From sequence record MK163348.1: a stretch of 436 bases of DNA; one strand, written 5' to 3'. A program made the translations under genes and the position numbers. The notes under the pieces are model-generated. The model was given only the letters and a program-made list of their open reading frames with translations, did not search any database and was not told where the DNA came from. Of the stretch, positions 1 through 436 are shown piece after piece. The stretch is from a phage. Numbering within the stretch: position 1 is the stretch's first letter; each line of letters opens with the position of its first letter.

Positions 1-1
1 C

Positions 2-436
2 GTAGTTGTTGACCGTGTATTCTTCAGCAAACTGACTAAGCATCCTAAGATTCGTGACGCTTATCTTGCACAGCAGACTCCACTGGCTTGGCAGCAGATT
101 ACTGGTTCTCTGAGAACTGGTGGTACTGACGGCGTTCAGGCTCATATGAACACTTTCTACTACGGTGGTGTTAAGTTTGTCCAGTACAACGGTAAGTTCA
201 AAGACAAGCGTGGTAAGGTTCACACTCTGGTGAGCATTGATAGTGTAGCAGACACTGTTGGTGTTGGTCATGCTTTCCCTAACGTAGCTATGCTGGGTGA
301 AGCTAACAACATCTTCGAAGTTGCATATGGTCCATGTCCTAAGATGGGTTACGCAAATACACTTGGTCAGGAACTGTACGTATTCGAATACGAAAAAGAC
401 CGTGACGAGGGTATTGACTTCGAAGCGCATTCCTAT
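2..436 (+). CDS. Partial CDS, truncated at both ends by the window; uncharacterised protein, probably a highly expressed phage gene (abundant virion or DNA-associated protein); family not assigned
   Basis: Frame 2 is open for all 145 codons. Sense frames 1 and 3 are closed early (TGA 10-12, TAG 3-5) and repeatedly. Strong codon bias by hand count: GGT 14/15 Gly, ACT 8/9 Thr, CGT 4/5 Arg, TTC 8/9 Phe, CAG 7/7 Gln, GAC 8/9 Asp, CTG 6/8 Leu. First codon position is G-rich, as expected for a true coding frame. The phage attribution rests only on codon dialect (AAG over AAA, no CCG, about 46% GC) and is an inference. Confidence 0.85.
379..392. repeat. Perfect 14-bp palindrome CGTATTCGAATACG centred on TTCGAA, inside the CDS (codons Tyr-Val-Phe-Glu-Tyr-Glu)
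   Basis: Read directly: nt 379-392 equal their own reverse complement. Flanking bases 378 (a) and 393 (a) do not extend the symmetry. Biological role unknown. Confidence 0.6.

Follow-up and report, generated by a model that had tools for sequence, protein, structure and literature searches.

A lysine-rich segment in a Felixounavirus gene fragment is part of a predicted, lineage-variable surface hairpin of the major capsid protein

Introduction

The window (the whole stretch of 436 nucleotides of phage DNA, from record MK163348.1, that was analysed here) encodes at nt 185-223 a compact segment that is rich in lysine and flanked by aromatic residues. From the letters alone, an initial annotation took such a patch to be typical of a surface loop or beta-hairpin that contacts nucleic acid or an acidic partner. 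It also pointed to a loose resemblance to the gene 2.5 single-stranded-DNA-binding (SSB) protein of phage T7 (gp2.5), while declining to make that assignment. The locus thus raises the question of which protein is encoded by the window, and of what the lysines of this segment do in it.

Results

The window is an internal fragment of a major capsid protein gene

Frame +2 (nt 2-436) is stop-free across all 145 codons and is the only plus-strand frame that is open from end to end. Its translation matched PF03864 (Phage_cap_E, phage major capsid protein E) with 71.2 bits (E=1e-19, profile positions 193-313 of 329), the curated cut-off of this family being 22.9 bits, and PHROG 29 (major head protein) with an E-value of 2e-20. 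No other Pfam family, SSB families included, was matched by the translated fragment up to E=1, and an Rfam scan of both strands gave no match. At the nucleotide level, megablast returned 257 phage records with 80-99% identity, nearly all of them named as Escherichia, Salmonella, Shigella or Citrobacter phages or as Felixounavirus, and most of the 20 matches listed are annotated as major capsid or major head protein. When aligned with PDB chains over all 145 residues, the fragment corresponds to residues 203-347 of 9ncf_A (E=1.9e-95), and it also matches 9c2d_A (E=3.6e-90). [quoted passage not shown]

Nt 2-436, plus strand: internal fragment of the MCP gene, residues 203-347 of a 368-residue HK97-fold MCP (Pfam, PHROG, nucleotide and PDB matches).

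Since the flanks of the window lie outside the stretch, the gene neighbourhood was taken from the closest genome, that of phage finno (97.5% nucleotide identity), where terminase and portal genes are followed by those of protease, decoration protein and MCP, and then by tail genes. The neighbourhood check that had been proposed to distinguish a replication from a morphogenesis module therefore points, in finno, to the morphogenesis (head) module. As a protein query, the 145-residue fragment recovered one fragmentary match, and the homologue search was redone with the full-length finno MCP.

On the minus strand, the frame in the phase of the sense codons is also stop-free over window positions 1-436. 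This antisense frame is open because the capsid gene avoids TTA, CTA and TCA, which account for 3 of the 369 codons of the finno MCP gene, as against about 40% of the Leu and 29% of the Ser codons in the structural module. So strong an avoidance has a probability of about 0.003 if the codon usage of the neighbouring structural genes is taken as the expectation. In finno, codon 213, which falls within the region of the window, is CTA and interrupts the frame, and an antisense gene was accordingly rejected as a codon-bias artefact that is not conserved.

The HK97 fold and the resemblance to T7 gp2.5

An AlphaFold2 model was obtained for P0002, a full-length homologue 98% identical to the finno MCP, from an alignment of 54 full-length relatives. 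The model has a mean pLDDT of 83.8 and a pTM of 0.82, with 10-residue blocks over residues 261-280 at pLDDT 90-91. It displays the spine helix (residues 111-139) and the A-domain helices of an HK97 fold, as predicted for the whole homologue, of which the window covers residues 203-347. In a Foldseek search it superposed on the 9ncf and 9c2d chains with TM scores of 0.86-0.89, and all of the 50 PDB structure matches listed, among them one encapsulin, are shell proteins of the HK97 fold.

These results also bear on a kinship between the fragment and T7 gp2.5-type SSB proteins of the OB fold. The gp2.5 sequence quoted in the initial annotation was accurate when compared with that of T7 (FKFKCYASFQDKKTKETKHINLVVVDS), and by eye KFKDKRGKVH-TLVSIDS can be set beside FQDKKTKETKHINLVVVDS: in both, a hydrophobic strand ending in D-S comes after a short run rich in lysine. 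This match is by eye only: BLASTP scored the resemblance at 9.6 bits with E=40, which is noise. The Pfam match is solely to the capsid family, the gene lies in a head module in finno, and neither an OB fold in the P0002 model nor any SSB among the 50 structure matches listed was found. A long acidic C-terminal tail with a terminal aromatic residue is absent too, as the full-length homologue ends in ...LLVDVRADAEGE and T7 gp2.5 in ...EESEEADEDGDF. The two proteins share no significant similarity and differ in fold, neighbourhood and function. Kinship with T7 gp2.5 was hence refuted by the Phage_cap_E and 9ncf matches, by the BLASTP E-value and by the capsid matches of Foldseek, and the chance that the fragment is such an SSB is, in our estimate, vanishingly small.

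The lysine-rich segment lies in a predicted two-stranded hairpin

The 13 in-frame codons at nt 185-223 (TAC AAC GGT AAG TTC AAA GAC AAG CGT GGT AAG GTT CAC) translate to YNGKFKDKRGKVH, a lysine-rich segment exactly as initially annotated, with a single Asp and with flanking Tyr and His. Five basic residues (K, K, K, R, K) had been counted in eleven positions; their number is correct, but they are spaced more tightly, within the 8 positions of KFKDKRGK. When the 145-residue fragment was shuffled, 2.2% of the shuffles contained a stretch of 8 residues with at least 5 K/R, and the share rose to 11% for the full-length protein, so that the basic cluster, while real and marginally beyond composition, is statistically unremarkable and only weakly unusual.

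The full protein also contains a richer basic stretch, RAKKLMKIRTK (residues 115-125), with 6 K/R in 11 residues at the start of the spine helix.

Finno locus L001, nt 4644-4676, outside the window: RAKKLMKIRTK, the most basic stretch of the MCP.

The structural part of the initial guess, a surface loop or beta-hairpin, was supported by the AlphaFold2 model, in which a two-stranded hairpin is predicted at exactly this place. By DSSP, a strand at residues 253-263 is followed by the hairpin, a variable loop and then a strand (residues 292-297 in P0002 numbering) that carries a G-H-A-F-P motif, the motif itself being residues 291-295 in 9NCF numbering. The incoming strand TFYYGGVKFVQ has a bulge in the model and conserved residues at F254, Y256, G258 and F261.

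Nt 152-184, plus strand: A-domain beta-strand that precedes the hairpin, TFYYGGVKFVQ, residues 253-263 (DSSP strands 253-256 and 259-263).
Nt 185-229, plus strand: beta-hairpin YNGKFKDKRGKVHTL, residues 264-278 (model DSSP and conservation), of which the reported segment is nt 185-223.
Nt 194-202, plus strand: first hairpin strand, K267-F268-K269 (DSSP 267-269).
Nt 203-217, plus strand: turn D270-K271-R272-G273-K274, between the hairpin strands (model and conservation).
Nt 218-226, plus strand: second hairpin strand, V275-H276-T277 (DSSP 275-277).
Nt 266-280, plus strand: G-H-A-F-P motif, on the A-domain strand that comes after the hairpin excursion and runs back toward the P-domain (alignment and model).

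Since 366-367 of the 368 residues are modelled in the 9ncf and 9c2d chains, the hairpin very probably adopts an ordered structure in the actual capsid.

Directly after the hairpin comes a loop (SIDSVADTVGV, residues 279-290, nt 230-265), which is the most indel-prone part of the fragment; its length varies by up to about 8 residues among members of the clade described below, and the loop is absent from short-form relatives. Hairpin and loop together form a 28-residue excursion, compared with about 12-17 residues in distant relatives.

The hairpin scaffold is conserved and its lysines are variable

Conservation was assessed in a clade of 28 sequences with at least 46% identity. Within it, Y264, G266, F268 and L278 are invariant (28/28), and D270 (27/28), H276 (27/28), R272 (25/28) and G273 (24/28) are nearly so. 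The lysines, by comparison, are retained in 16 (K267), 12 (K269), 17 (K271) and 7 (K274) of the 28 members. K267, K269, K271, K274, V275 and T277 are all variable, with entropies of 1.6-2.9 bits as against a protein mean of 1.05; the lysine positions alone have 1.6-2.4 bits and are the least conserved of the hairpin. Residues found instead at the variable positions are Q, T, N, V and A, and T277 is replaced by Lys in 12 of the 28 relatives. In the following strand, each residue of the GHAFP motif is present in 28/28. Such a split marks an amphipathic hairpin, packed on one side and exposed to solvent on the other, where the lysines would lie; the predicted hairpin fits this pattern.

Summed over residues 264-278, the hairpin is net positive in 28/28 members, by +1 to +5, the window with +4 standing near the top. 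Elsewhere in the protein, the E-loop has a net charge of -2 to -5 in 26 of the 28 members. The charge of the 115-125 stretch correlates inversely with that of the hairpin (Spearman -0.65, from 28 relatives and confounded by phylogeny), and a scan for charge co-variation, subject to the same confounding in these 28 related sequences, found several regions that correlate with the hairpin, among which the E-loop was not singled out.

The hairpin is an old feature of the wider family

When 1.84 billion representatives were searched with a profile, 2,918 family clusters were collected at E⩽0.001, and the best 150 of these were aligned with the first set to give 201 sequences. Over the region equivalent to residues 264-278 two main lengths occur, 10 residues in 96 sequences and 15 residues in 67. 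The long form is also found outside the FelixO1 group, where it typically reads Y-R-G-x-A-T-D-x-x-G-T-x-R-K-F with a net charge of -4 to +3; family-wide, its charge spans -4 to +5. The D-x-x-G turn is present in many long-form hairpins of the wider family.

The fragment resembles Phage_cap_E, the lambda gpE family, in its HMM match and in the nearly invariant Y-x-G at the opening of the hairpin; a third of the sampled members also have the D-x-x-G turn in a hairpin of 15 residues. It differs in hairpin length from about half of the members sampled, which are shorter there by 5 residues, and in its richness in lysine from the long forms outside the Ounavirinae-like clade. From these alignments, the hairpin and its D-x-x-G turn appear as an old and recurrent feature of the family, and lysine richness as peculiar to the Ounavirinae-like lineage and inconstant even there. 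A conserved binding function for the lysines is disfavoured for this reason. In lambda, YSGQYVENGVKKNFL may be an equivalent hairpin, an impression that is not built upon here, since a comparison of the clade profile with lambda gpE fell short of significance (probability 0.2).

The fragment belongs with confidence to a capsid family that does not conserve the segment, which is the outcome that the initial annotation had named as refuting its proposal. Contact of the segment with nucleic acid or an acidic partner is not favoured on these alignments, because the lysines are the least conserved residues and the hairpin of the wider family can be neutral or acidic. One may go further and regard the lysines as having no role at all, as a neutral compositional fluctuation on the exposed face of a structurally required hairpin. 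The shuffle frequencies (p 0.02-0.11), the entropy of 1.6-2.4 bits at the lysine positions and the family-wide charge range all agree with this account; nevertheless, residues 264-278 carry a net positive charge throughout the clade, and lost lysines are often matched by Lys277 (12/28). We consider a complete lack of function unlikely.

The predicted position in the shell

[quoted passage not shown] In our model, helices at 207-236 are followed by a low-confidence loop (237-252), the strand 253-263, the hairpin, GHAFP and the P-domain strands. P22 gp5 has a short helix (172-184), a flexible loop (190-208) that closes the six-fold opening, a last A-domain stretch to residue 221, the I-domain (222-345), a further A-domain segment (346-357) and the P-domain from 358 (PMC9965877). 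The site of the I-domain is therefore topologically that of the hairpin, after the strand that succeeds the A-loop and before the last A-domain strand, from which the chain enters the P-domain. P22 gp5 is unlike the present protein in carrying a 124-residue folded domain there instead of a 28-residue excursion with a small hairpin. It is also a very distant HK97-fold protein with no sequence relationship, so that the equivalence is one of topology rather than of superposed structures. Since by topology the hairpin occupies the site of the exterior P22 I-domain, we think it somewhat more likely than not that it is outer and peripheral in the A domain, at the end of a strand pointing away from the capsomer axis.

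This placement bears directly on a different reading, according to which the basic hairpin faces the interior and makes non-specific contacts with packaged dsDNA, neutralising or organising its outer layer. The net positive hairpins of 28/28 clade members would suit such a role, as would the interchangeable K/R/Q/N/T positions, which fit non-specific electrostatics, and the inverse correlation with the 115-125 charge (-0.65), as if total positive charge were balanced; that correlation is, however, confounded by phylogeny. The exterior location of the I-domain at the same topological site in P22 is contrary to it, and so are the many wider-family hairpins that are neutral, acidic or shortened. 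A weak point in the same direction is that full and empty capsids of Shigella phage Sf14 show no observable conformational difference (PMC11821841). An interior contact with DNA is therefore, in our judgement, improbable.

Decoration proteins and further residues of the window

[quoted passage not shown] Salt bridges join both decoration proteins of Sf14 to the MCP, gp34: Arg79 and Arg107 of gp20 are bridged to gp34 Asp221, and a gp33 Lys is paired with a gp34 Glu (PMC11821841). Asp221 is placed on short helices at the apex, which occupy the centre of the capsomer and provide the docking site of the Hoc-like protein (PMC11821841).

With such bridges in view, and with a Hex-Dec surface that is negative, a basic hairpin could be thought to dock either the Dec trimer or Hex-Dec, to which it would be accessible if exterior. 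Yet in the reported bridges the acidic residue belongs to the MCP and the basic residue to the decoration protein (PMC11821841), and Dec and Hex-Dec sit at the quasi-threefold axes between P-domains and at the hexamer centres, respectively, both away from the A-domain periphery. A docking role is unlikely, because the known contacts are opposite in charge and are found at those other sites, and we would call it very improbable. The hairpin is moreover without mention in the structure papers of Sf14, Bas63 and phiTE and in the Sf14 supplement, and no description of named A-domain loops turned up in a literature search.

Beyond the lysine-rich segment, the window holds a residue whose function has been described, namely Asp221, which lines the capsomer centre and contacts the decoration protein gp20. 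By the PDB alignment, window residue 19 (nt 56-58) is chain residue 221 and is Asp.

Nt 41-76, plus strand: apical A-domain helix HPKIRDAYLAQQ (model helix 217-225), with the Asp221 codon at nt 56-58.

Two other stretches deserve a description. At nt 383-424, FEYEKDRDEGIDFE (MCP residues 330-343) is an acidic cluster with a net charge of -5 over 15 residues, as extreme as that of the hairpin. By fold topology it is probably the turn between the two long P-domain strands near the three-fold contacts, a region in which, in Sf14, a decoration-protein Lys is bound to a capsid Glu (PMC11821841). At nt 335-343, in G-P-C-P, the Cys is window residue 112; the residue ahead of the PCPKMGY motif, which contains this Cys, is G or A in the closest relatives, and clade members that are more distant have A, V or P in place of the Cys.

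Discussion

Taken together, we think it probable that the lysine-rich segment belongs to a two-stranded A-domain hairpin of the Felixounavirus MCP in which the lysines supply a tunable surface charge and do not form a dedicated nucleic-acid motif. Y264, G266, F268, D270, R272, G273, H276 and L278 make up the conserved scaffold of the hairpin and its turn, and the topology suggests that the hairpin is an excursion between an outward-running A-domain strand and the GHAFP strand. K267, K269, K271 and K274, at alternating variable positions, would lie on the exposed face and set the local charge. The lysines may thereby create a locally positive surface patch in this lineage and tune the electrostatics of the shell. 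In HK97-fold capsids the E-loop bridges adjacent subunits at the capsomer periphery, and the net-acidic E-loop of a neighbouring subunit would be a plausible partner for the positive patch.

The net positive charge of all 28 clade members is a counterpoint to entirely free tuning; judged from the alignment, the sign of the hairpin charge could be selected, and a specific acidic partner or a DNA contact could be involved. In a more speculative form, the lysine-rich hairpin would be a lineage-specific adaptation of Ounavirinae-type T=9 capsids, providing a ring of positive patches that contacts the packaged DNA from inside or pairs with the acidic E-loop of a neighbour. Hairpin and basic beginning of the spine helix would then jointly hold the total positive charge constant, and this constancy would be important in assembly or in retaining the genome. 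Empty capsids are numerous in Sf14 preparations. We give this proposal a small chance, and prefer the tunable surface hairpin.

The segment is, then, an ordinary, lineage-variable surface hairpin in a known protein. The window should be filed as a capsid gene and not as a candidate SSB or nucleic-acid-binding protein, and this negative outcome is the useful one. The finding otherwise matters little, since the MCP is structurally solved, the surface hairpin is small and its lysines are not conserved. For capsid specialists there is the minor point that the hairpin marks a length- and charge-polymorphic spot of the lambda-E family at what is, by topology, the domain insertion site of P22-like coat proteins.

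The closest known protein is gp8, the MCP of Escherichia phage JohannRWettstein (Bas63; PDB 9NCF, Sci Adv 2025, PMC12609058), which is identical at 142 of 145 residues over 203-347 and comes from the same genus, Felixounavirus, with a T=9 capsid and the HK97 fold. The three differences (T/V at window residue 12, D/A at 84 and A/S at 96) all lie outside the hairpin, and the entire YNGKFKDKRGKVH segment is identical to that of the window. The gp34 MCP of Shigella phage Sf14 (PDB 9C2D/9C3A, Commun Biol 2025, PMC11821841), which was found in virions by mass spectrometry, is about 93% identical. It shares the conserved Asp221 and apical helices, and has YNGKFKDKRGKTH as its hairpin; it differs from the present protein by V275T in the hairpin and by a one-residue insertion in the loop that follows.
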